DNA of 33,689 nucleotides, taken from IMG/VR virus record IMGVR_UViG_3300045988_054881. One strand, 5' to 3'. Below the pieces are notes generated by a model. That model had not been told where the DNA came from. It saw only the letters and a program-made list of their open reading frames with translations, and did no database searches. The first letter of the stretch is position 1. The number at the start of each line of letters is the position of its first letter. Shown here piece after piece: positions 11,256-33,689 of this stretch. This DNA is from a virus. The position numbers and the translations under genes are program-made.

Positions 11256-12397
11256 TTCGGCCTGTATCTTCTAATTAAGTAATCAACTCCATACCGCAAA
11301 GCGTCTAGTGCATGGTTCCATGCGTCTATCGCTTCATTGGTATAAGTGTCGGTGGACTCGTCTTTGATCCACTTGTAGTTATCCAACTCGTCTAGTAGCT
11401 TAACGGAACGCTTGGTGACGTGCAACTTAAACTGCTTCACCTGTGCGATACCGCCTGCCACTGATCCCTTGCCCTTCACACACGGAATAGCTTTGATACG
11501 TCTTTGCTGTAGCTCAACGATAGATTTCTGTTCTGCGTTGTCGCAAACCGTGATCAGCTTGTTAAGCATGTTGCCTGTTAGGTAGTCCGCTATGTGGGAA
11601 TTAAGTAAACCCGTCTCATAGCAAAGAAGGTCAACGTACAGGTCCCATCCGTGAAAACGTATATCGACGATAGCGGTCGGATCATTCACGAAACCGAAGT
11701 CAAGACCTAGGCAACGTCCTGTGTAGGTTTCCGGCATATCCTCTATAACCTCGTATGCGGGATATACATTTCCTTCGACGCCACCTGTTTCGCCTTCACC
11801 GTAAACACGCCACCAGTTAGCATCGTTCCTGTTCTTCTCGATAGCGCCTACCTGCTCTTTGGTCAAGTATGGGTTATCCTTATACGTTGATCTGATAGTT
11901 ACGTATCGGTTGCCAACAAACTCAGTCTCACCCCAGAACTTCCTAACCGGGTTAAAGTCAATGATGACTTTCTTTCTCGTACGGATGTCTAGTTGTCTGA
12001 ATATCTCTCTAGGTATGCCTTGTGCCTCGTTCACAAAAAGAATGTCGCGTGCGGGCCCGTGTACCTTGCTAGAGTTATCAACGCCAAAGAACTCGATCAT
12101 ACAGCCATTAGGGTAGGTGTACGTTCCTTCCGACTTATTGAAAGCGTTCTCGTCCCAAACCCCCTCGGTAACTAGCATGGCCTTAAAGTCACGCTGCATG
12201 CCTCGTTTCACCATCGGCAGTGTAGCGGCTACACATGAGATGATCAGCGGCTTTTCGGAGTTGGTGCATAAGATGTGAAACAGTTGAAGGGCTGCCCACG
12301 TTTTGCCGGAACGTGTTCCACCTTTCGAGGCGACACCTCGTATCTTTGGATCAACGAAAGCAGCCAGAAGCTTCTCGAATGTATAGGTTACATTCAT
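11252..12397 (-). CDS. terL: Terminase large subunit.
   Basis: Walker A 'SKGGTRSGKT' and Walker B-like 'ILFVNEA'. Nuclease-domain motifs 'GLDFGFVNDPTAIV' and 'HALDALRYG'. 381 aa, with its start overlapping the TerS stop as TAATG. Confidence 0.88.
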   Translation of the reverse strand: MNVTYTFEKLLAAFVDPKIRGVASKGGTRSGKTWAALQLFHILCTNSEKPLIISCVAATLPMVKRGMQRDFKAMLVTEGVWDENAFNKSEGTYTYPNGCMIEFFGVDNSSKVHGPARDILFVNEAQGIPREIFRQLDIRTRKKVIIDFNPVRKFWGETEFVGNRYVTIRSTYKDNPYLTKEQVGAIEKNRNDANWWRVYGEGETGGVEGNVYPAYEVIEDMPETYTGRCLGLDFGFVNDPTAIVDIRFHGWDLYVDLLCYETGLLNSHIADYLTGNMLNKLITVCDNAEQKSIVELQQRRIKAIPCVKGKGSVAGGIAQVKQFKLHVTKRSVKLLDELDNYKWIKDESTDTYTNEAIDAWNHALDALRYGVDYLIRRYRPK

Positions 12398-13017
12398 TAG
12401 ATACCTCCTAGCTTCTTTAAGTTGTCGACGGCCTCAGCTGACAGTACGTTCACCTGCATGGCTTTCGTGCCTGCTTCTTTACCGTTGGACGTTACATCCT
12501 TCAAGTCGCGAAGGCCTCGAAGTTTTGCCATATAGGTAGCGTCTACCATTCCAGCTAGCGCGCTTTCGTCCATCTCGGTTGTGATCAACTCTTTTATGAG
12601 GCAATAACCTAGATATAAGTTCTCGGCATCCGGGTTCCCATCGGCTGCAAGCTTTTCAAGCTTTTCCATATTCTTGTTGAAATCCTTGATACTCCATCCG
12701 ATAAACAGGCAGAACCCACCGACGGAAGGTGCGCGCTTCTTATCAATAGGAATTTTCTCACCTGCCATGTTGCCGCCCTTCATTACCTCGTATGAGATAA
12801 ACGGGTTCGCCTCACAGAAGTTCATATACTCGGCAACGTAATCTATACACTCATCAATAGTGTTCAGCGTTGCGCCCTTAACGCCTCGTACCTGCATCAC
12901 CTCGTAAAGTTGTGAGCATTTAGCAATACTGGGTTTAGGCGTTGGCGCCTTTCCGGTCGCCTGCCCTTTTATGATACCCGCTTTAGTTTCGGGCTCTGAT
13001 TTTCTTTTTCCGGCCAT
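12397..13017 (-). CDS. terS: Terminase small subunit (putative).
   Basis: Lies immediately upstream of and overlapping terL. 'APSVGGFCLFIGWSIKDF' resembles the HTH segment of small terminases. I chose the ATG at 13017 ('MAGKRKSEPE'); the ORF-track start at 13062 is a TTG codon. Confidence 0.6.
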   Translation of the reverse strand: MAGKRKSEPETKAGIIKGQATGKAPTPKPSIAKCSQLYEVMQVRGVKGATLNTIDECIDYVAEYMNFCEANPFISYEVMKGGNMAGEKIPIDKKRAPSVGGFCLFIGWSIKDFNKNMEKLEKLAADGNPDAENLYLGYCLIKELITTEMDESALAGMVDATYMAKLRGLRDLKDVTSNGKEAGTKAMQVNVLSAEAVDNLKKLGGI

Positions 13018-13106
13018 ATAGTTATATTGTTCGTTAGTAATGTACGTACGCACGAGGAACAACTAGTTCGCGCGCGTGCAGTCCCCTGTATGGGACGTGT
13101 GCGGCA

Positions 13107-13138
13107 CAAAAGTACACCGCCAATCCGGCATATACAAA
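13107..13138 (-). promoter_or_regulatory. Canonical Bacteroidota promoter for the late (packaging/structural/lysis) unit.
   Basis: On the minus strand, TTTG (13138-13135), then 20 nt, then TACTTTTG (13114-13107). This matches the TTTG-N19-21-TAnnTTTG consensus and lies ~90 nt upstream of the terS ATG. Confidence 0.6.
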
Positions 13139-13314
13139 TACGGCATAGTTTTTCAAATAAACTCCTTTGTCGTTGGTTTATACACACGAAATACCTACAT
13201 TTGCGGCTCTCACATACCTGTGAGGCCGTTACAAACCTATTCTAAATTAAATAATAAATTACAAAAACGGTTTGTAACACTTATCTATCTCACTTTCAAG
13301 TACTTATCTAAAAG

Positions 13315-13701
13315 TGTGACAAACTAAAAAAGTCAGTAACCACTTTTGTAACCACTTTTGTCACAGCTAATCACCTGATCTATTGCAAATTACGCGCTTT
13401 TCACAAGTATGTGACAAAGAAAACGCCTCAAACACTTCCAACAGGAAATATATAGGTATATTGCTATCTCTACATAGCAATATATTCTCTTTTCTAATAT
13501 AAGTGTTAGGGCTATTTTATATACTTACTGTAACACATATATATAAATAATTGATATAGAGGTAGTTAGCTGTGACAAAAGTGGTTACTATCCTGTGACA
13601 TCAACATTTTTCCTTTTTGTTATTTCTACTGATTATCAATTAGTTAGGTGTGACAAAGGAAAAACGCTATACTGATTATCAGCAGGTTAAGTGTGACAAA
13701 C
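13315..13701. promoter_or_regulatory. Non-coding module A. It holds 7 TGTGACA sites, a 23-bp perfect inverted repeat, a conserved hairpin, an AT-rich tract and 42-nt-period direct repeats.
   Basis: No ORF of 60 aa or more falls between 13328 and 13907. Motif coordinates are given in the findings. A stretch of 183 nt is colinear with 29965-30163. Confidence 0.75.
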
Positions 13702-13814
13702 TTTTAGGCACGTAAAATTAATTACTGTGAATTTTTTACTTTTTCTCCTTTTCGAGCGGTACGCCCGCAATCGACTTTTTGAAAGATTTGTCGACGCACC
13801 GAAAATATAAAACA

Positions 13815-13854
13815 AAAGTGCTAATCTGACATTTTGCAATCAAATTAGCACTTT
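13815..13854 (-). terminator. Putative terminator ending the early unit.
   Basis: An 11-bp stem, 'aaagtgctaat' (13815-25) pairing with 'attagcacttt' (13844-54), encloses an 18-nt loop. On the minus strand it is followed by 'tgttttatatttt'. Confidence 0.45.
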
Positions 13855-13907
13855 TTGCTATCACCTTTAAATAGAACACCCTATTCGTAAAAGGCACTAT
13901 CATTTTA

Positions 13908-15953: not shown

Positions 15954-15981
15954 ATTAATTACTGTTTTTAATTTGATACTG

Positions 15982-16035
15982 CAAATATAACTCATTTAGA
16001 GATACGTTGTTTCTTTTGTTAACGTTATTTAAGAA
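15982..16035 (-). promoter_or_regulatory. Phage promoter cassette copy 1 (drives the small-domain array).
   Basis: The minus strand reads CTTAAATAAC-GTTAAC-N8-CAACGTAT-N12-TATATTTG, followed by the leader 'CAAATTAAAAAC'. The cassette overlaps the SNF2 stop codon. Confidence 0.65.
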
Positions 16036-17416
16036 CTTTGTATTTCTCCATAAGTTCTTTGATACTTTGCATTAACCCGTCCTGCGTTTCCTTCTTTTCG
16101 GAAAGCGCTTTGATTATCTTCTCGTCTACCGTACCCTTGCTTACTATGTGATGGATATACACAGGCTTTGTTTGTCCCTGCCTATATAGGCGTGCATTAA
16201 ACTGCATGTACAACTCGAGGCTCCACGTGTTACCAAACCACACAAGTATGTTACCACCTTTTTGAAGGTTAAGACCGTGCCCGGCTGATGCTGGATGCGT
16301 TACAAGCACTTGTATCTTGCCATTGTTCCATTGGGCTATGTGCTCGGGCTTTTCCAACTTCACGGGCTTATAAGCTTTCAAGGCGTCCATGATCCTATCA
16401 AGGTCGTGAATGAAGGAATACGCCACGAGAACAGGGGCACCGTTTGCCGCCTCTACAATTTCCTGCAACTTCTCTAGCTTCTCGTCATGGATATGCTTGA
16501 CATTGCGGTCGGCATCATATATGGCACCGTTGGCATACTGTTGAAGCTTATTGCTTAACGCGGCTGCGGATGCTGCGGTTATCATTTCGTCGGAGCTGAT
16601 CAACTCTAAAACCTGTTCCCGTTCAAAGTCCAAGTAGTTATCATATACTTTGTCGGAAAGTTCTACAGTATCGAACAACATGATCTTATCCGGCATCTTT
16701 AAATAGTCTTCGGCGGTCATGGATATGGTTATATCACTTATAAGGTCACTGATCTGCTTTTCCGTCTCGTCTGCGGGCTGTTTGAGTGCATAGGTATAAA
16801 CTATATCACCGTTACGCTTATCTGGGCGGAAAAACCTATCTCTGTAGCCCGTAATTGTTTTGCCCAACCGTTCCCCTTCGTCAATCAAGTACATCTGTGC
16901 AAACAGATCAATAAGCCCGTTGGGCGATGGCGTTCCAGTCAGTCCTACCACACGAGGAATAAACTTCCGGACACGTTTCATTGCCCGGAACCTTTTAGAC
17001 GCATGGTTTTTAAAGCTTGATAGCTCGTCAATAACCACCATATCAAAAGGTAATTTTATACCGCCATATTCCGTGACTAACCAAACAATGTTATCCCGGC
17101 TGACCGCATAAATATCTGCCTTCTTTGCCATCGCTGCCCTTCGGTGTTTAACGTCTCCATCTATAACAGAAATGGTTAGGTCTTGCAGGTGCGCCCAGTT
17201 CTTTATCTCGTCAGTCCAAGTTACTTGTGTAACCTTCTTCGGAGCGACAACTAGAGCGTTCGTAATTATACAGGCATCCATAAGTTCTTTGATGGCTGTC
17301 AATGTCGTAACGGTCTTCCCTAGCCCCATGTCTAGGAATAAGGCACAGAATGGGTTGTCGATAATATGCTGAACACCTCTGTTCTGATAACTATGTAATT
17401 GGTTTCTTTGTAACAT
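16025..17416 (-). CDS. SNF2/Rad54-family helicase.
   Basis: Motif I 'DMGLGKT', motif II 'VVIDELS', motif III 'LTGTPSPN', and C-terminal 'GHGLNLQ' and 'NARLYRQGQ'. 463 aa. Confidence 0.9.
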   Translation of the reverse strand: MLQRNQLHSYQNRGVQHIIDNPFCALFLDMGLGKTVTTLTAIKELMDACIITNALVVAPKKVTQVTWTDEIKNWAHLQDLTISVIDGDVKHRRAAMAKKADIYAVSRDNIVWLVTEYGGIKLPFDMVVIDELSSFKNHASKRFRAMKRVRKFIPRVVGLTGTPSPNGLIDLFAQMYLIDEGERLGKTITGYRDRFFRPDKRNGDIVYTYALKQPADETEKQISDLISDITISMTAEDYLKMPDKIMLFDTVELSDKVYDNYLDFEREQVLELISSDEMITAASAAALSNKLQQYANGAIYDADRNVKHIHDEKLEKLQEIVEAANGAPVLVAYSFIHDLDRIMDALKAYKPVKLEKPEHIAQWNNGKIQVLVTHPASAGHGLNLQKGGNILVWFGNTWSLELYMQFNARLYRQGQTKPVYIHHIVSKGTVDEKIIKALSEKKETQDGLMQSIKELMEKYKVLK

Positions 17417-19799: not shown

Positions 19800-19926
19800 A
19801 ACTTAAATTTTAATAGTTTATAAAAAGAAGCCCGGTTATAAAATCCCTTTCACTTTTTTATATTTCCCTTTCGGGTTTCCTGTTTGCGGTTTCGGTGGCA
19901 AACAACCTTGCTTCGTTTTGGTATTG

Positions 19927-19980
19927 CAAATATAAGGGTTATTCTGATACGTTGTATATTTCGTTAACACTATTTAAGAA
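19927..19980 (-). promoter_or_regulatory. Phage promoter cassette copy (drives the lipoprotein gene), followed by a ~125-nt leader.
   Basis: The minus strand reads CTTAAATAGT-GTTAAC-N8-CAACGTAT-N12-TATATTTG. Confidence 0.65.
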
Positions 19981-20014
19981 TAAACCCTTATATTGCTTTT
20001 CTGTTAACAAGTCG

Positions 20015-22450
20015 TTAACTTTTAGCCTTTCGTACATACCCTCTTTGTTGTCCGTGAGCCTTGCAACGTCTTACACCCCTTTCCCATCCCGGCATACGGT
20101 TAAGCACGCCTGTTATGTCTGCGGCATCGGTACGTTTGATCTTTCCTATCTCGAGATCCAGTGCCTCAACTAAAACAGCGGGAGCGCTTACAAAGTCCAT
20201 GAGCATACACTTTTCCTTGTCTACCTCGTCTTCGTCATAATTGGCATAGTACATTTTCCGTTCCAGTTGGTTCATTTTATCCCAACACAAAGGTACATAC
20301 ATATCCACGTATTTCTGAATGGCAGATGTTCGCGGATCAGCTTCATAGTGTTCTTCCCTTCCGGCCTCAGCAATCATTTCAGCTTCCGGGCTTAATAACG
20401 TGCTGACCTTCCGATAGTACATCTGCACTGCTTCCGCCCAAAGTTGATCTATGTAATCGTCGAAAGCGGGCTCAAAGATAAGATGTGTGTTCGGGTTAAC
20501 CTTACATCTCACCGGAAGGAAACGCCTGCCGCCTGTTGCGTCTTTCAGAAACTCGTCCTTATTAGTTGTGCCTATGAAAACACACTGCCGCGGAAAGTTC
20601 TTTGTAACACGTCCGTAGGCAGGTCTGAAACTGTCCTCTGTCTTCGTTATGAAGTTTTTCACTAGCTCTACCTCAGCTTTTTTCATGGCTGATAGTTCGC
20701 CTACTTCAATAATCCAACTTCCCTGTAGCTGTTCAAAAGCCCGTGTTCCTTCCATTGAAATTAAACTGTCGGAAAACCAATTCTTGCCTAGCTTTTTGCA
20801 CAGTGTACTTTTTCCGGTGCCTTGATCAGCCACCATAACGAGCATACTGTCGAACTTGCATCCCTTCTGAAAGATACGCTTAACGGCACCTACAAGCATT
20901 ATCCGAAAAGCTTCCCGGGTATATATATTGTCCTCGGCACCCATTATATCAATAAGCACTGTATCTACGCGCGGCACTCCATCCCACACAAGGCCCGTTA
21001 GGTAACTTTGCACAGGGTGGAACGAGTTATGTTCAGCCGACAACGCAATGGCATCATCTATCTTTGCACTACTGTTTATCCCGTACATGTCTTCAATATG
21101 TTTGCGGACACCGGAAAAGTCAACGTCTTGAAAGTCGCTAGTGTTATCTTTCGGGCGCCAGATAGGAACACGTGTTACAACGCGTCTTTCCTTAAACAAG
21201 TCTCTAGCTATCAAACCTTTTAAGGCGGGATCATGCTGCATTATCAACCCTAGGTTCTTTGCGCTAGGCAGATAAGCACCTCGTTTATCGGTTTCTAGCC
21301 CGGCCATTGCATCCGTGTACTCTTCTGTTATGGCTTCCACGTCCGTTACTTCCGGCACTTCGTCGCTATATAGCTCCTCGAAATCGTCCACAATTGCAGC
21401 CGCTTTTGCCGTTAACCGGGTGGCCCTTGCTGCTGCTACCTTCTCATCCTTGTTAACTAGTTCAGACATGGCACCCATTGAAGGGCGCTTGTCCTGTCCC
21501 TTATCCATCTTTCCGAACAGGTGAACACGAACTAGGTCGAAAGCGTTGAATACATGGTTTCCTTGTATGGGATCATTGTTATGGAATGAATAAGCAAACA
21601 TATCGTCAAACGTCAGCATGCCACCGGACGTTGATCCGCCTGTGTAAGTCCATCGGTCTTCTTTATCTGTCGGCTCGTACACTTTCGGAAGATACTTTTC
21701 TATCGCTTCCGATATGGTGTACGCCCGGCAGAAATCGCCTACAATACCATCTTTCAGTGTAGGGTTCTGCTGTTCCTTCACTAGGTTGCGTGCTTCTCCT
21801 TTTTCGTCCTTGTGGTACGCCCATTCGGTTACATCGCGCCAATTCTCGTAATACCCCAGATACTTTTGAACGTCTAGTGTTTCCTCGTTCAGTTGGGAAA
21901 AGTCCACGAAATCAAAGTCTACATCTCGGGACACGGACGGGTAGAACATACAGCGTTCGGGTTGGAACGTGGTACGGTCGTACAAGTCAATACCTGTTAA
22001 CTCGGCTACTTTACGGGCAATCGCCTCATATTGTTCGCTGTCTACAGGCTCAGACAAGGGAATGATAACCCGATAACGGTAAACGTTCGCTTTCGGGTTA
22101 TGCTTGTGCGTGCCATGAATAATGCAGGCGCAATTAATAATGCCGTAAAACTTATCCGGGAAATCAGACTCTCCGAAATCTATGTCAAGAGCCAATAACG
22201 AGCGCTCACCGACGTTGTTCTTATTCCGCCTGTTACCGAATAGTTCGCCACCCATGAAGGCGCCAACGTCCTTAATGTTTCCCTGTTCGGTTTTGCTCGC
22301 ACTAATAAATTCACGATAGGTTTCCTCTGTAACTTTCGCCGACGTGAACTTTTCCACCAACTGCGCCCATGTAAATGACTTGTTTTTCCAAGCCGTTGAC
22401 TTCGCGTTGGTGGCGGTGGCAATCTTAAAAACCATTTTAGATAGTTCCAT
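20015..22450 (-). CDS. Primase-helicase (N-terminal primase-like domain plus a VirE/D5-type P-loop helicase).
   Basis: 'LALDIDFGE' provides an acidic catalytic-type motif. Walker A is 'ADQGTGKST'. 'ATGGRRFLPV' is the VirE-family signature. 811 aa. Confidence 0.8.
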   Translation of the reverse strand: MELSKMVFKIATATNAKSTAWKNKSFTWAQLVEKFTSAKVTEETYREFISASKTEQGNIKDVGAFMGGELFGNRRNKNNVGERSLLALDIDFGESDFPDKFYGIINCACIIHGTHKHNPKANVYRYRVIIPLSEPVDSEQYEAIARKVAELTGIDLYDRTTFQPERCMFYPSVSRDVDFDFVDFSQLNEETLDVQKYLGYYENWRDVTEWAYHKDEKGEARNLVKEQQNPTLKDGIVGDFCRAYTISEAIEKYLPKVYEPTDKEDRWTYTGGSTSGGMLTFDDMFAYSFHNNDPIQGNHVFNAFDLVRVHLFGKMDKGQDKRPSMGAMSELVNKDEKVAAARATRLTAKAAAIVDDFEELYSDEVPEVTDVEAITEEYTDAMAGLETDKRGAYLPSAKNLGLIMQHDPALKGLIARDLFKERRVVTRVPIWRPKDNTSDFQDVDFSGVRKHIEDMYGINSSAKIDDAIALSAEHNSFHPVQSYLTGLVWDGVPRVDTVLIDIMGAEDNIYTREAFRIMLVGAVKRIFQKGCKFDSMLVMVADQGTGKSTLCKKLGKNWFSDSLISMEGTRAFEQLQGSWIIEVGELSAMKKAEVELVKNFITKTEDSFRPAYGRVTKNFPRQCVFIGTTNKDEFLKDATGGRRFLPVRCKVNPNTHLIFEPAFDDYIDQLWAEAVQMYYRKVSTLLSPEAEMIAEAGREEHYEADPRTSAIQKYVDMYVPLCWDKMNQLERKMYYANYDEDEVDKEKCMLMDFVSAPAVLVEALDLEIGKIKRTDAADITGVLNRMPGWERGVRRCKAHGQQRGYVRKAKS

Positions 22451-26260: not shown

Positions 26261-26326
26261 AACGTTTTATACTTTTTGTTTTTGGCCTCTATACGGTTCA
26301 GCCTTTCCGTTTTTAATTTGATGTTG

Positions 26327-26368
26327 CAAAGATAACAATAAAATCAATACGTTGGTTCTTTTGTTAGC
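26327..26368 (-). promoter_or_regulatory. Phage promoter cassette copy (drives the SSB gene).
   Basis: The minus strand reads GCTAAC-N8-CAACGTAT-N12-TATCTTTG, followed by the leader 'CAAATTAAAAACG'. Confidence 0.65.
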
Positions 26369-26373
26369 ATCTT

Positions 26374-27546
26374 TTATATTTTCTCGAATAAATCAAGCGT
26401 TGGCACTATTGCTTCCCGTGGATCATCTTCCAAAGCTAGAGTAGGCGCGCCTGCGGGCTTTTTGATAACGTCTTTCAGTGTTGCCGCAAATGGCTTTTTG
26501 CCTACCATCTTTTCAAGATCACCGATACCTTTCAGCTTGTGATTTTTTAGATCATCCTCAGCAAACCCTAGTCCGGTTAATAGTTCGATTGCTTTCGCTT
26601 CGTCTGATATAACCCGGACGCTTCGCCCTTCTACTAATTTCCATCCCGGCACGGTTTTTCCTTCTAGAGCTGACTTCATGGCATGTTCTTTGATAGACGA
26701 TAACCAACTGGTGAACATATCGGACTTTTTTAGCAACTCCCCTATCTCGTCTAGGGTTAGGGTGTTTGTATCGCCATGAGTTTCAAATTCAGATACTAGA
26801 GCATCCTTCTGCGCACGGCAAAGAGGTTTATGCTTGCAGAACTTGCAGTGTGATCCGGTGACACACTCACCTTCACCCTTAAAAGCTTTTTCAGCCACCG
26901 GACGCAACGTGTGGATAGCCCAATGCGTTAAATCTCGTGCAGGCATCTCGAAGGTAGGGAAGTGACCTAATCTAACTTGTGCGATATGCATACGTACTGT
27001 TTCTATTTCCGCCTGCCTTTTTGGAGGAAGTGACCGAAGGACGCCTAACGCATACATCATAAGTTGCGAATTATTTACAGCCTCTACCTTAACGCCTTTT
27101 CCGTACTTCAAGTCTATAATATCAAGCACCTTTTCCGATACTATATCGCAGTCACAACTGCCCGAACATTCCGGGACGTACATAGATAGATCAAACTTCC
27201 TCTCTAATCCCATTGTAGCGCCTTCTTTTACCTCGAAAAGATCACAGACATAGCAAACGTAATCCGTTACATACTTATCCATCTCAGGGTCGTAATAAGG
27301 GCTGCTTTTGATGTTTTCCGGTGTCGGAAGGTTATCAAGAAGCGGCATGTAGTTTCCGGCTAGATACTCAGTCAACGCATATTCGGCTAACTCGTGGGCG
27401 GTTGTTCCTTCCTCAGCCGCTGAACTGCTTGTTTCCTCGTAACTCTCTTCCAATCTTGCCGACGGTGTACAAGTCATCCACCGTTTTGATCCGGATGGAG
27501 AGAGTAGGGAATGTGCTCTCTCCGTGTGGTTTATTGTTTCTGACAC
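26374..27546 (-). CDS. PD-(D/E)XK nuclease with a C-terminal Cys cluster (DUF2800/Cas4-like).
   Basis: 'LLSPSGSKRWMTCTPS' at the N-terminus, 'DIIDLKYGKGVKVEAVNNSQLMMYALG' as the D..D.K core, and 'CKFCKHKPLC'. The start codon is GTG at 27546. Confidence 0.8.
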   Translation of the reverse strand: MSETINHTERAHSLLSPSGSKRWMTCTPSARLEESYEETSSSAAEEGTTAHELAEYALTEYLAGNYMPLLDNLPTPENIKSSPYYDPEMDKYVTDYVCYVCDLFEVKEGATMGLERKFDLSMYVPECSGSCDCDIVSEKVLDIIDLKYGKGVKVEAVNNSQLMMYALGVLRSLPPKRQAEIETVRMHIAQVRLGHFPTFEMPARDLTHWAIHTLRPVAEKAFKGEGECVTGSHCKFCKHKPLCRAQKDALVSEFETHGDTNTLTLDEIGELLKKSDMFTSWLSSIKEHAMKSALEGKTVPGWKLVEGRSVRVISDEAKAIELLTGLGFAEDDLKNHKLKGIGDLEKMVGKKPFAATLKDVIKKPAGAPTLALEDDPREAIVPTLDLFEKI

Positions 27547-27547
27547 A

Positions 27548-28036
27548 TTAGTCCTTGTAAGTGATTAGACGTTGTTTCAACAAAGCAAACTTTGCAGGCG
27601 CAATTTTCATTAAAGAAGTACCGCCAAACTCATGGAAAATACTCATGATCTCGTCTCTAGTGAGCTTGCCGGACTTGGATAGAGAAATAACTAAATCCTG
27701 CATTTCCTTCGTGGTCGGTTGTTCGTCCGTGCTCGTTTCAGTTTCCGGTGCAGGTTCAACTACAGGTTCCGGTGCAGGTTCAACTACAGGTGCAGGTTCA
27801 ACTACATGTTCCGGTGCGGGTGCTGCTTTCCCTGCTTTTACCTTTCTTGGTGCTTTCTCTGTAACGGGTACAGCGGCTATTTCCTTGACCTCTACAGGAC
27901 TTTCTACCTTTAGTTGTGCGGTTGTGTCACATGGGATATTAGAACTCAAATTTGCGCCCGAAATAACGCTTTTCACAAATTCCACCTCGTGCAAGTTGCT
28001 TGCATCGAAATCCAACTCAAAAACTTTAATTTTCAT
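27548..28036 (-). CDS. Hypothetical early protein with a Pro/Glu/Val-rich repeat linker.
   Basis: 'APEHVVEPAPVVEPAPEPVVEPAPETE' is encoded by 18-24-nt tandem repeats at ~27742-27820. I chose the ATG at 28036 ('MKIKVFELDF'); the ORF-track start at 28048 is a TTG codon. Confidence 0.5.
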   Translation of the reverse strand: MKIKVFELDFDASNLHEVEFVKSVISGANLSSNIPCDTTAQLKVESPVEVKEIAAVPVTEKAPRKVKAGKAAPAPEHVVEPAPVVEPAPEPVVEPAPETETSTDEQPTTKEMQDLVISLSKSGKLTRDEIMSIFHEFGGTSLMKIAPAKFALLKQRLITYKD

Positions 28037-28057
28037 ACGATTTTTCAATTTATATAA

Positions 28058-28526: not shown

Positions 28527-28553
28527 AATTTCTACTTTTTAATTGTTATGGTA

Positions 28554-28607
28554 CAAAGACAAGGAATAAAACAATACGTTGTTCTTTTTGTTAACGTAAT
28601 TTAAGAA
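28554..28607 (-). promoter_or_regulatory. Phage promoter cassette copy.
   Basis: The minus strand reads CTTAAATTAC-GTTAAC-N8-CAACGTAT-N12-TGTCTTTG, followed by the leader 'ACAATTAAAAAG'. The upstream gene's TAA stop lies inside GTTAAC. Confidence 0.6.
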
Positions 28608-29106
28608 AGTTGTTTTTCTGAATTTTGTCAATCCATGCTTTAGGAACGATAGGGAGCGTGTCTATATACTGCTTGATATAAACCTTGCGCCCGTTTGAAT
28701 CGAAGGAATACCAACCTACGTTGCTATACTTGAAAAAAGACCTATAATCTTTGTTTAGCTTAACAACCTTACTGACTATATCGTTCACATCCACTTTCCC
28801 TACACAACCAGACTGTGCTAAATCAGATGCTTTCTTGATAAGTAGTAAGGCTTCCAAAAAGCACGGGTTGTCTCTCAAATAAACCAAGCATTCCTGCGTA
28901 TAGTGGGACGTGTCGCATAGGTCTACGGGTTTAGCTTTTTTCGATGCGCGTTTCAGTAACTCTTCGGTCATCTCTGCGGGGAAAACATACCGCCCGTTAT
29001 TGGGGAGATTTACCCGTACGATGACGGTTCCTGTTTTGGTGGAATCCATTAATTCCGGTGACACAATAATGTCGGCAATCTGATTTTTTAAACTTCTAGC
29101 TTTCAT
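28591..29106 (-). CDS. Hypothetical early protein.
   Basis: 171 aa with an ATG start and its own cassette promoter. Confidence 0.5.
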   Translation of the reverse strand: MKARSLKNQIADIIVSPELMDSTKTGTVIVRVNLPNNGRYVFPAEMTEELLKRASKKAKPVDLCDTSHYTQECLVYLRDNPCFLEALLLIKKASDLAQSGCVGKVDVNDIVSKVVKLNKDYRSFFKYSNVGWYSFDSNGRKVYIKQYIDTLPIVPKAWIDKIQKNNFLKLR

Positions 29107-29140
29107 AACGTTTACTTTTTGCTTTTTAATTTTGATACTA

Positions 29141-29194
29141 CAAAGATACGTATTATTCCGATACGTTGGTTATTTTGTTAACCTTATTTAAGAA
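29141..29194 (-). promoter_or_regulatory. Phage promoter cassette copy.
   Basis: The minus strand reads CTTAAATAAG-GTTAAC-N8-CAACGTAT-N12-TATCTTTG, followed by the leader 'CAAAATTAAAAAG'. Confidence 0.65.
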
Positions 29195-29395
29195 AATAGC
29201 CTCCATTAGCGGTTGTAAGAACTTGTAGGACTCTCCGTTAAATTGATAAGATTCTATTTTCCCTCTAAAGCGCACCTCTGAAAAAGAAGTGTTATACTCG
29301 TTACCTTTGTCATCCACATATACGAGTATGTGATTGATGATAATAAAGTCACCATCTGTTAGGTGTCCGGCATTGATACAATTTATTGCTCTCAT
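29153..29395 (-). CDS. Hypothetical small early protein.
   Basis: 80 aa with an ATG start. Its 3' end is encoded by the next promoter cassette. Confidence 0.45.
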   Translation of the reverse strand: MRAINCINAGHLTDGDFIIINHILVYVDDKGNEYNTSFSEVRFRGKIESYQFNGESYKFLQPLMEAIFLNKVNKITNVSE

Positions 29396-29465
29396 ACGAT
29401 TTTTTCCGACTAGTGCCTCGGTGGCCTTCCGCTAGGTGAAACAACGTGTTTCCCTTTCTGCTCTG

Positions 29466-29520
29466 CAAAGATATGGATAAAAACAATACGTTGTACATTT
29501 CGTTAACACTAATTAATAAT
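29466..29520 (-). promoter_or_regulatory. Phage promoter cassette copy with a ~70-nt GC-rich leader.
   Basis: The minus strand reads GTTAAC-N8-CAACGTAT-N12-TATCTTTG. Confidence 0.6.
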
Positions 29521-29758: not shown

Positions 29759-29785
29759 TTGAATTACTTTTTAATTGTTATGCTG

Positions 29786-29840
29786 CAAAGGTAGGAAAAG
29801 ATATGGTATGTTATACATTTCGTTATGTTACATTAACACT
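29786..29840 (-). promoter_or_regulatory. Degenerate cassette-type promoter of the first early gene, overlapped by an operator-like palindrome.
   Basis: The -7 box TACCTTTG (29786-29793) is followed by the leader 'ACAATTAAAAAG'. The upstream boxes are altered (CATAAC / TAACATAC) but keep the same N8/N12 spacing. Confidence 0.55.
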
Positions 29841-30234
29841 TTTGTGCGTGTAACAGCTAAATTGTTGCATATCAAGGCATTATAAAAACGTGTGACAGAT
29901 TCAAATGTTATAGTAACATAAATGTAACACTGTAAGTTGTTGTAGGTCTGTGGGTTACTAGCGCTGTGACAAAAACACGCCTAAAATTCCCTTATACTTT
30001 TATTTCGTTGTTTTGCAATTTATACCCCTATATTGTAATCTCTGATATTACAATAATCTATTTTCTCGAATAAGTATAGGGCTATTTTTATATATTTGCT
30101 GTAACAGATATAGTTAAGTAGTTGTAATAGAGCAAGTTAGCTGTGACAAAAGTGGTTACTATCTCAAATGTTAATGTAACATAATCTCATAAGTTATTAT
30201 AAATGAGCTGTTTAACTGTGACAACGGTGTGACA
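29825..30234. promoter_or_regulatory. Non-coding module B. It holds 5 TGTGACA sites, 3 ATGTTA-N3-TAACA(T/C) palindromes, a conserved hairpin and the 29-nt core shared with module A.
   Basis: No ORF of 60 aa or more falls between 29759 and 30287. Coordinates are given in the findings. Confidence 0.75.
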
Positions 30235-30240
30235 GTCCTA

Positions 30241-30279
30241 AACGAAAACAGGGAAGCACCATTTTTGGCACCTCCCTGT
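30241..30279 (-). terminator. Terminator ending the late unit, specific to the minus strand.
   Basis: A 14-bp stem pairs 30248-61 with 30266-79. Three positions are G-U pairs in the minus-strand RNA but A-C mismatches in the plus sense. It is followed by 'uuucguuu' and lies 9 nt after the stop at 30288. Confidence 0.65.
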
Positions 30280-30287
30280 TTTTCTAT

Positions 30288-33395: not shown

Positions 33396-33689
33396 TTAGT
33401 TAAGTTGCACAAATTGTTCCGCGTATGCCGGGTTTTCTTTGATAAGACGCTCGGCAATCTCGTCCGTCATGTTGGCGGCTTTATAGATAACGCCGTCCGC
33501 ATAATGTACGATACGTGCGCCTGGTTTCATAGCCCATTTGTAAACCTGCCCGGTCAGATACTTTGACTGATACCAAAGTTCTACAAACTCCATGTCCATG
33601 TGACAGTTGTAATCCAGTTTTAAACCTGTATACTCAAAATACTTGTCTACCTTTTCTTTCAAAGTATTCAGTACAGGTATTTCTGTACC
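33396..33689 (-). CDS. 3' part of the junction-spanning tandem-repeat protein gene (see 1..205).
   Basis: The frame is open to the end of the window. The 'M' at 33662 in the ORF track is an internal TTG codon. Stop TAA at 33396-33398. Confidence 0.65.
   Translation of the reverse strand, partial: GTEIPVLNTLKEKVDKYFEYTGLKLDYNCHMDMEFVELWYQSKYLTGQVYKWAMKPGARIVHYADGVIYKAANMTDEIAERLIKENPAYAEQFVQLN

Follow-up and report, generated by a model that had tools for sequence, protein, structure and literature searches.

What does it mean when two copies of a hairpin in one genome differ in sequence and both still pair perfectly? The question is raised by IMG/VR virus record IMGVR_UViG_3300045988_054881, a stretch of 33,689 nucleotides (nt), here called the window, which is the genome of a gut Bacteroides siphophage. 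Two large non-coding gaps, gap A (~13063-13907) and gap B (29759-30287), each hold one such hairpin (Table 1). A first-pass annotation read the differences between the copies as compensatory substitutions, and the covariation as a sign of selection on structure rather than on a fixed sequence. Comparison with homologs from related phages leads elsewhere: across homologs the sequence of the element is conserved and its pairing is not. In the reading that we favor, with moderate confidence, the hairpins are the central quasi-palindromes of two homologous iteron-type replication-origin modules.

The hairpins and their homologs

Both hairpins were confirmed in the sequence and by folding, with the 11-bp stem of copy A and the 9-bp stem of copy B that had been described for them. 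The stems differ by C-G versus T-A and by T-A versus A-T, so that CT/AG in copy A stands against TA/TA in copy B, complementary in each as first reported, and the loops of both copies begin with CTCT. A single hairpin is predicted for either copy on either strand. Folding as DNA gives -7.0 kcal/mol for A (z-score, -6.5) and -4.9 kcal/mol for B (z-score, -5.9), and folding as RNA gives -12.5 and -5.2 kcal/mol. A genome-wide count of perfect hairpins (stems of 9 bp or more, loops of 3 to 9 nt) gives three, copies A and B among them, where first-order Markov simulations yield a mean of 1.0. The location of the hairpins inside a duplicated module also holds. They occupy corresponding positions at the centers of a homologous non-coding module of ~430 bp, with 79% identity between 13482-13592 and 30053-30163 and a mean column identity of 75% in the wider gap alignment (561 and 531 nt). 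One 28-nt stretch, GTTAGCTGTGACAAAAGTGGTTACTATC (13565-13592), recurs exactly in gap B at 30136-30163.

Both gaps were gathered from IMG/VR, metagenome, ENA, and Logan contigs via protein anchors, which were needed because the gaps diverge too fast for blastn against portal-anchored loci. An exact 24-mer of the module had no match in IMG/VR, and a degenerate palindrome scan of the same database gave at least 118 matches, mostly chance, adding only gap B of contig 033390. The pairing count is based on 21 distinct versions of the CTCT element. Their commonest state is ATTGCTAT-CTCTAC-ATTGCAAT, which carries a T.T mismatch; pair 12-24 is unpaired (T.T) in 16 of the 21 versions and pair 11-25 in 5. 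Paired cells amount to 73.2% versus 71.3% in shuffled controls, a value reached by 78 of 500 shuffles, and the covariation score is 0.088 versus 0.068 (61 of 500). The primary sequence TGCTATCTCT, comprising left arm and loop start, is shared by 20 of the 21 versions. Pairing at the level of shuffles, combined with a nearly invariant sequence, contradicts the claim that structure rather than sequence has been selected.

The states found in individual lineages bear this out. The nearest relative, L405, whose primase-helicase is 98% identical, has a copy A identical to that of the window and a copy B in a two-mismatch form. This form, TATTGCTAT-CTCTGAT-ATTACAATA, is common to copy B of L405, L398, L399, and L400, is unpaired at T.T and C.A, and folds at -0.7 kcal/mol, which does not surpass shuffles. 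The state ATTGCTAT...ATTACAAT, again with two mismatches, occurs in gap A of L348 and L349 and in gap B of L398, L399, L400, and L405, and folds at -0.7 to -2.4 kcal/mol. Contigs whose repeat is TGTGCCA make up the largest lineage in the sampling of the CTCT element. Here the T.T mismatch is joined by changes in the outer part of the left arm (ACTGC, GTTGC, AGTGC) that have no compensation; the element folds at -0.3 kcal/mol, no better than shuffles, and the core sequence is kept. Stem-disrupting changes that lack compensation are thus present in L405, in L398 to L400, and in the TGTGCCA lineage, and other lineages retain five or more changes away from symmetry.

Nor did the window copies pass from one paired state to another, as compensatory substitution would imply. 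The ancestral element was probably ATTGCTAT-CTCT..-ATTGCAAT, an imperfect palindrome with a T.T mismatch, and each copy was perfected separately. In the window's clade, a T-to-A change in the right arm completed the stem of copy A. In copy B, a window-specific change of the adjacent bases CT to TA made the left arm the exact complement of its own right arm, and did so very recently, given that copy B of L405 still has the two-mismatch form. The T.T mismatch was also resolved by a left-arm T-to-A change in gap A of L352/L387 and in gap B of contig 033390, which makes at least four independent resolutions together with copy A of the window's clade and copy B of the window. Gene conversion from copy A was considered as the source of the new arm in copy B and rejected, as the left arm of copy A reads TTGCTAT.

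Other palindromes occupy the gaps of some relatives. EMB1-like genomes (e.g., L113, L147, and L182) have a different near-perfect palindrome, ATAGTATATTTTATACCCCTCAAAATACACTAT, in place of the CTCT element in gap A, perfect in L147. Both of their gaps also contain an inverted repeat pair, CTGCACAGTAGCGATTTTTTACTGTGCAG. A further perfect palindrome, AATATTATAAC-TATAT-GTTATAATATT, occurs in gap B of L067. Contig OMGF01000181.1 (64.5 kb), the source of L352 and L387, carries a related primase-helicase gene twice, and the gap A palindrome that goes with it has one and the same version in the two cases; being ~2 times as long as a usual genome, the contig may be an assembled concatemer or head-to-tail dimer.

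Repeat modules and a candidate initiator

The hairpins sit within fields of a short repeat. In the window phage this repeat is GT[G/T/A]ACA, most often CTGTGACAAAAG, and it is 16-fold enriched in the two gaps, with 26.9 sites per kb against 1.63 per kb in the rest of the genome. For TGTGACA, 12 of the 16 genome copies lie in the two gaps, with 3.5 expected genome-wide. Hexamer offsets from the palindrome are nearly equal in gaps A and B (+61/+60, +104/+102, and +182/+178). The span around the hairpin is free of repeats, from -57 to +61 in A and from -74 to +60 in B, leaving a core of ~115 to 130 bp. In gap A, 40-nt windows at 0, +40, and +80 nt from the palindrome are 72 to 78% A+T, and the window at -40 is 60%; the genome is 56%. 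The gap A repeats flank this AT-rich center on both sides in opposite directions, and palindrome A is the midpoint of an inverted repeat made of two 29-nt arrays, GTAACCACTTTTGTCACAGCT... and its complement; the right arm of this inverted repeat is overlapped by the 28-nt stretch shared with gap B. The 261-nt region of gap A folds at -45.9 kcal/mol (z-score, -8.9), reflecting strong dyad symmetry. Gap B likewise has repeats on both sides of its core. On the circular genome the two modules are 16.6 and 17.1 kb apart, almost opposite one another.

Whereas the central element is nearly constant, the repeat type varies across lineages and includes TGTGACA, TGTTACA, TGAAACA, TGTGCCA, TGGAACA, and CGGAACA as well as CTGTGCA, CTGTGTA, CTGGTCA, CTGGCCA, and CTGTGTC; CTGTGCAG is an example of another lineage's type. 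Both gaps have the same repeat type at 10 of the 11 loci where both yielded one, a signature of sites co-evolving with one DNA-binding protein. In gap A of L135/L209 (contig 3300045988_021627; gap of 871 bp), a short unit is repeated 17 times (7-mers ATAGTCC/GACTATC).

All open reading frames (ORFs) of the relatives were clustered, and the association of each cluster with repeat type was scored. Across all sampled genomes, the primase-helicase separates the repeat types best (area under the curve, 0.937). A column-by-column test was performed in the EMB1-like group, covering 35 genomes, 40 protein families, and 5,228 variable alignment columns. Association with repeat type is strongest at three columns of the primase-helicase alignment, numbers 803, 804, and 807 of 824, which lie in the wing (adjusted mutual information [AMI], 0.61 to 0.68). 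They fall within the motif GW.R....G..RG..R, and the wing sequence sorts by repeat type: ..QRAANGKTV.. goes with CTGTGCA, ..KRSADAKSV.. with CTGTGTA, ..QRAAGRRAV.. with CTGGTCA, ..ERSRQRVKSY.. with TGTGCCA, and ..ERGVRRCKAH.. with TGTGACA. The small terminase was rejected as the reader of the repeats, its best column having an AMI of 0.44 versus 0.68 for the wing.

The primase-helicase matches the Staphylococcus aureus pathogenicity island (SaPI) initiator-helicase SaPI1 Rep1 (PDB 7PDS) over residues 396 to 735 (phmmer, 1.6e-76). AlphaFold2 modeled its last 130 amino acids (aa) as a helix-turn-helix followed by a beta-hairpin, with a mean predicted local distance difference test score of 85.8. 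The sole significant Foldseek matches of this winged helix are to the C-terminal domain of 7PDS chains (E values of 1e-5 to 1.6e-4; template modeling scores of 0.69 to 0.72, the best match having 0.71).

From the anatomy of the modules, their homologies, the co-variation of repeat and wing, and the states of the element across lineages, we infer origin function, binding by the primase-helicase, and a mutational mechanism for the perfected stems. The primase-helicase would bind the repeat arrays through its C-terminal winged helix, assemble on either side of the AT-rich core, and unwind it. The conserved TGCTATCTCT..ATTGCAAT element would then lie in DNA turned single-stranded, where it is probably read as sequence, during loading, in priming, or by a conserved factor; such reading would explain why it stays invariant where the repeats differ between lineages. 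Arm-copying changes like that of copy B are the expected outcome of hairpin-templated (quasi-palindrome) mutation in single-stranded DNA: there, CT became TA not after copy A but as the complement of the copy's own right arm. A near-palindrome in single-stranded DNA may fold back on itself and be "corrected" by intrastrand template switching, which would explain the adjacent two-base change together with the recurrent symmetric fixes. Weak selection for pairing is a possible alternative to templated mutation.

A more specific version, which we hold to be possible though doubtful, has a self-loading primase-helicase use the modules as a cooperating origin pair, or as one origin with an auxiliary site, the quasi-palindrome extruding as a DNA hairpin at helicase loading or priming. 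If so, the repeated perfecting (at least four times, once through a two-base templated change) would be a natural in vivo record of extrusion.

Alternatives and gene context

A number of observations weigh against the proposal that the modules are iteron-type origins. Whereas the SaPI origin is single and immediately downstream of rep, the phage has two modules at 6 to 7 kb from the gene, that of gap A ~6.3 kb downstream and that of gap B ~7.3 kb upstream. Gap B lacks long-range dyad symmetry (z-score, 0.1), and its unambiguously oriented GTGACA sites all face one way, its other sites (TGTAACA/TGTTACA) matching the hexamer on both strands. The association between protein and repeat is imperfect (best AMI, 0.68, with a few mislabeled or mixed genomes) and could partly stem from shared ancestry or linkage. 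The four symmetry-restoring events could be due to selection instead of templated mutation. GC skew says nothing on origins, being monotonic and dominated by coding-strand bias. In one sub-clade (L092, L129, L131, and L139 to L144), gap A, measured between the e145 homolog and terS, is only 84 to 85 bp long and has no module; none of these contigs is among the primase-helicase matches, although no dedicated check for absence of the gene was made. Finally, the early and late promoters follow closely downstream of the modules, an arrangement that would suit a transcriptional switch equally well.

Such a switch is the strongest rival, if an improbable one. The repeats would be operators or enhancer sites timing the change from early to late expression, the palindrome would be a dimer operator, and the regulator would be the winged helix of the primase-helicase or a small protein. 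Besides the position of each module directly upstream of an operon's first promoter, the half-sites ATTGYWAT have the form of a dimer operator, and the core sequence is kept whatever the repeat type, as for a conserved reader. However, scans with Pfam, PHROGs, and NCBIfam revealed no DNA-binding regulator among the early proteins, the protein that co-varies best is homologous to a replication initiator, and repeats flanking an AT-rich center are the layout of a Rep-type origin; symmetric changes in both half-sites would also be unexpected for a single fixed operator protein. We consider it unlikelier still that purifying selection, via compensatory substitutions, keeps the element paired as a structured RNA or as a hairpin or cruciform in DNA. 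Two perfect copies that differ at two paired positions are what that explanation predicts, repeated independent resolution of the T.T mismatch agrees with it, and at the pRN1 origin function does depend on stem-loop integrity (PMC4234260). The homologs speak against it: pairing does not stand out from that of shuffled controls, pairs 12-24 and 11-25 are open in the proportions given above, copy B of the nearest relatives and the TGTGCCA lineage fold like shuffles and yet keep the core sequence, and at least five departures from symmetry were retained.

Of the structural forms that the first-pass annotation had suggested, a DNA hairpin is plausible, in that the element folds, probably lies in an unwound zone, and has regained symmetry in several lineages. 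An RNA is unlikely because each module lies between one operon's terminator and the next operon's promoter on the sole coding strand, because covariation is lacking, and because Rfam, searched at gathering and permissive thresholds, returned nothing meaningful for the modules; the only matches were eukaryotic microRNA and small nucleolar RNA models far below threshold, reflecting dyad symmetry. Least credible is that the modules are packaging sites (pac or cos) bound by the small terminase, or physical genome ends. Gap A is indeed directly upstream of terS-terL, the usual place of pac or cos, and many contigs of relatives begin or end inside it, one of them in adapter. This account fits gap A only, as the same module recurs in gap B, 16.6 kb away beside the early operon; the contig breaks are scattered, as for assembly breaks at a repeated module, and the weaker association of terminase columns with repeat type has been noted above.

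Two further identities were rejected. For a rolling-circle origin, which calls for an HUH nickase, a hairpin loop with a nick site, and one origin per replicon, no HUH/Rep family was found in Pfam scans of 39 ORFs (one of which, 13736-13903, is probably spurious), and there are two same-orientation copies per circle, the sole resemblance being the conserved CTCT at the loop start. For an N4-type hairpin promoter, a DNA hairpin read by a virion or giant single-subunit RNA polymerase, no RNA polymerase family appeared in any scan, and the largest ORF, of 1018 aa, has no polymerase domain.

The genome is complete and circularly permuted, with 33,634 bp (positions 1-55 of the window equal 33635-33689); the window is identical in sequence to an ENA human-gut metagenome contig, and every gene is on the minus strand. 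The phage comes from a siphophage family (33 to 37 kb) of Bacteroides, Phocaeicola, and Parabacteroides, with members including EMB1/EMB2 and BU183P1, whose coding regions have ~70% nucleotide identity; a literature search on isolate names of the family found only a genome announcement. Gap A has the terminator of the early/replication operon on one side and terS and terL on the other, terS lying directly downstream. Gap B follows the late/lysis end and precedes the early promoter. Products of the early operon include a DUF2800 nuclease, an Enc34-type single-strand-binding protein, an exonuclease, a family-A DNA polymerase, the primase-helicase, and an SNF2 helicase.

In the direction of transcription, the early-operon terminator is just upstream of the gap A module. 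A G+C-rich hairpin just upstream of the gap B module, kept in L398 to L400 and L405, is likely the late-operon terminator, although it was not called by the terminator scanner. A candidate late promoter lies between the gap A module and terS and is kept in gap A of L348, L349, and L402. Bacteroides promoters have the consensus TAnnTTTG, by which we take an element between the gap B module and the first early gene to be the early-promoter -7 box. A family of ~80-nt repeats, with seven sites upstream of early genes on the minus strand, combines such a -7 box with a conserved upstream block (AACGTTAACAAAAG...CAACGTATC); these are probably early or middle promoters with a common regulator site. 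A sigma-70 promoter scan was uninformative for Bacteroides, and no tRNA or transfer-messenger RNA was found.

A minus-strand ORF at 13736-13903 (55 aa) is probably not a gene because it overlaps the early-operon terminator hairpin, in which case the true gap A reaches from terS as far as 13907. A later start than that of the longest TTG-initiated ORF is probable for both terS and DUF6549, since homologs have 206 to 207 aa and 192 aa, respectively. Two repeats lie within genes: a tandem repeat of three 39-nt units at 42-158 and an array with a 12-nt period at 27725-27820, within ORF 27548-28048. Among contigs of the family, L141 (contig IMGVR 3300045988_023991) at locus 1-35 ends inside gap A in Nextera adapter (CTGTCTCTTATACACATCT...), and sample ERZ25067747 has L399 and L402 as separate contigs with ends inside or close to the gaps. 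Many other contigs also begin or stop in gap A or B, likely a result of assembly breaking at the duplicated module.

Table 1. Positions in the window of the hairpins, repeat modules, candidate initiator, and neighboring features
Feature	Position	Strand	Details
Central palindrome, gap A	13457..13484	.	TATATTGCTAT-CTCTAC-ATAGCAATATA; 11-bp perfect stem, 6-nt loop; arms 13457-13467 and 13474-13484; loop CTCTAC 13468-13473
Central palindrome, gap B	30031..30055	.	TATTGTAAT-CTCTGAT-ATTACAATA; 9-bp perfect stem, 7-nt loop; arms 30031-30039 and 30047-30055; loop CTCTGAT 30040-30046
Iteron-like repeat field, gap A	13228..13698	.	13 GT[G/T/A]ACA hexamers; 12-nt-period arrays, e.g., GTAACCACTTTTGTAACCACTTTTGTCACAGC
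Iteron-like repeat field, gap B	29826..30234	.	16 GT[G/T/A]ACA hexamers
Repeat-free AT-rich core with palindrome, gap A	13417..13528	.	Presumed unwinding zone
Repeat-free AT-rich core with palindrome, gap B	29972..30099	.	
Left arm, long inverted repeat of iteron arrays, gap A	13348..13376	.	29 nt, 93% complementary; midpoint ~13468
Right arm of the same inverted repeat, gap A	13560..13588	.	AGGTAGTTAGCTGTGACAAAAGTGGTTAC
PriRep-type primase-helicase, candidate initiator	20015..22450	-	811 aa; VapE-like domain (Pfam), 1.4e-76
C-terminal winged-helix domain of primase-helicase	20030..20194	-	AlphaFold2 and Foldseek
Beta-hairpin wing	~20030-20086	-	GWERGVRRCKAHGQQRGYVRKA
Terminase small subunit (terS), first late-operon gene	12397..13062	-	GP3_package (weak); phrog_606, 6.2e-09
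Intrinsic terminator closing early/replication operon	13814..13855	-	17-bp stem and T-rich tail
Likely late-operon terminator	30248..30279	.	G+C-rich hairpin between T runs; read from sequence
Candidate Bacteroides-type late promoter	13232..13265	-	TTTG, 22 nt, TAGGTTTG; putative, from sequence reading
Presumed early-promoter -7 box	29786..29793	-	TACCTTTG; repeated promoter family D1/D2; putative, from consensus
~80-nt repeats, sites 1-4	15965-16047, 19910-19992, 26310-26392, 28537-28619	-	
~80-nt repeats, sites 5-7	29124-29206, 29439-29520, about 29759-29840	-	

Significance and comparison with known systems

The hairpin itself is ordinary once homologs are seen, a quasi-palindrome and not a covarying structure. 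The case is a cautionary one: two paralogous copies, both perfect with different bases, mimic covariation, and denser sampling reveals an imperfect ancestor perfected twice and so removes the claim of selection on structure. The modules have wider interest. Siphophages of this kind (33 to 37 kb), infecting Bacteroides, Phocaeicola, and Parabacteroides, are abundant in the human gut and have no described origins. The modules offer a testable assignment of origin and initiator and a natural set of co-varying repeats and wings, of potential use for Bacteroides replicons or vectors and for the specificity of SaPI-Rep-like initiators. Should the version with a cooperating pair hold, at least 10 matched pairs of repeat type and wing would spell out how winged helices of this class recognize DNA, as a code found in nature. 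The duplicated modules would also explain why assemblies of the phage family tend to break in the two gaps.

The closest likeness is to the SaPI Rep/PriRep origins. SaPI Reps are self-loading helicases whose C-terminal winged helix recognizes iterons of 5 to 6 nt; the iterons flank an AT-rich center in opposite directions, the center is then melted, and repeat sequences vary from element to element in step with the protein (PMC9371898). The phage protein has the homologous helicase core (7PDS, 1.6e-76) and a C-terminal winged helix, and, as in SaPI PriRep5, primase and helicase are fused. Its putative sites are likewise short repeats on both sides of an AT-rich center, in opposite directions in gap A, and their type varies between lineages together with the wing. 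An origin of the SaPI type would have six to twelve such repeats, two or more per side in opposing orientation; gap A, with 13 hexamers, has inverted arrays of this kind, and the clearly oriented sites among the 16 of gap B face one way. The present host of the system is, however, a Bacteroides siphophage and not a satellite element, and the phage has the conserved central quasi-palindrome (TGCTATCTCT..ATTGCAAT), of which the SaPI-origin text consulted makes no mention. Relative to an iteron origin of the SaPI-Rep type, and supposing that the modules have this function, what is new is their duplication at nearly opposite positions, the conserved central element, and the natural series of repeats and wings.

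The archaeal plasmid pRN1 provides a hairpin counterpart. Its initiator, ORF904, combines a prim-pol, a superfamily 3 helicase, and a winged helix, and its origin is a stem-loop at which restoring the symmetry of the stem rescued replication (PMC4234260). The phage resembles it in an initiator of the same three-part architecture and in a hairpin-forming element as putative origin. In contrast, the pRN1 stem-loop is ~100 nt long and conserved in structure but not in sequence (PMC4234260). The phage element has 25 to 28 nt, conserved in sequence but not in pairing, and the proteins are likened by architecture only.

The paired layout and the perfected stems also have precedents. In ori and crr of phage P4 and in oriL and oriR of SPP1, two distant cis regions share repeats bound by one initiator, which in P4 is a primase-helicase with a C-terminal DNA-binding domain. 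The phage modules match this arrangement of two separated regions with the same repeats, a likeness drawn from layout. In the Ripley model of quasi-palindrome template switching, multi-base changes perfect an imperfect inverted repeat by copying the other arm. Such mutagenesis is known mainly from mutation reporters in Escherichia coli, yeast, and T4, whereas here it would be deduced from comparison of natural phage genomes alone; both the CT-to-TA change of the window and the single-base T.T fixes fit the model.

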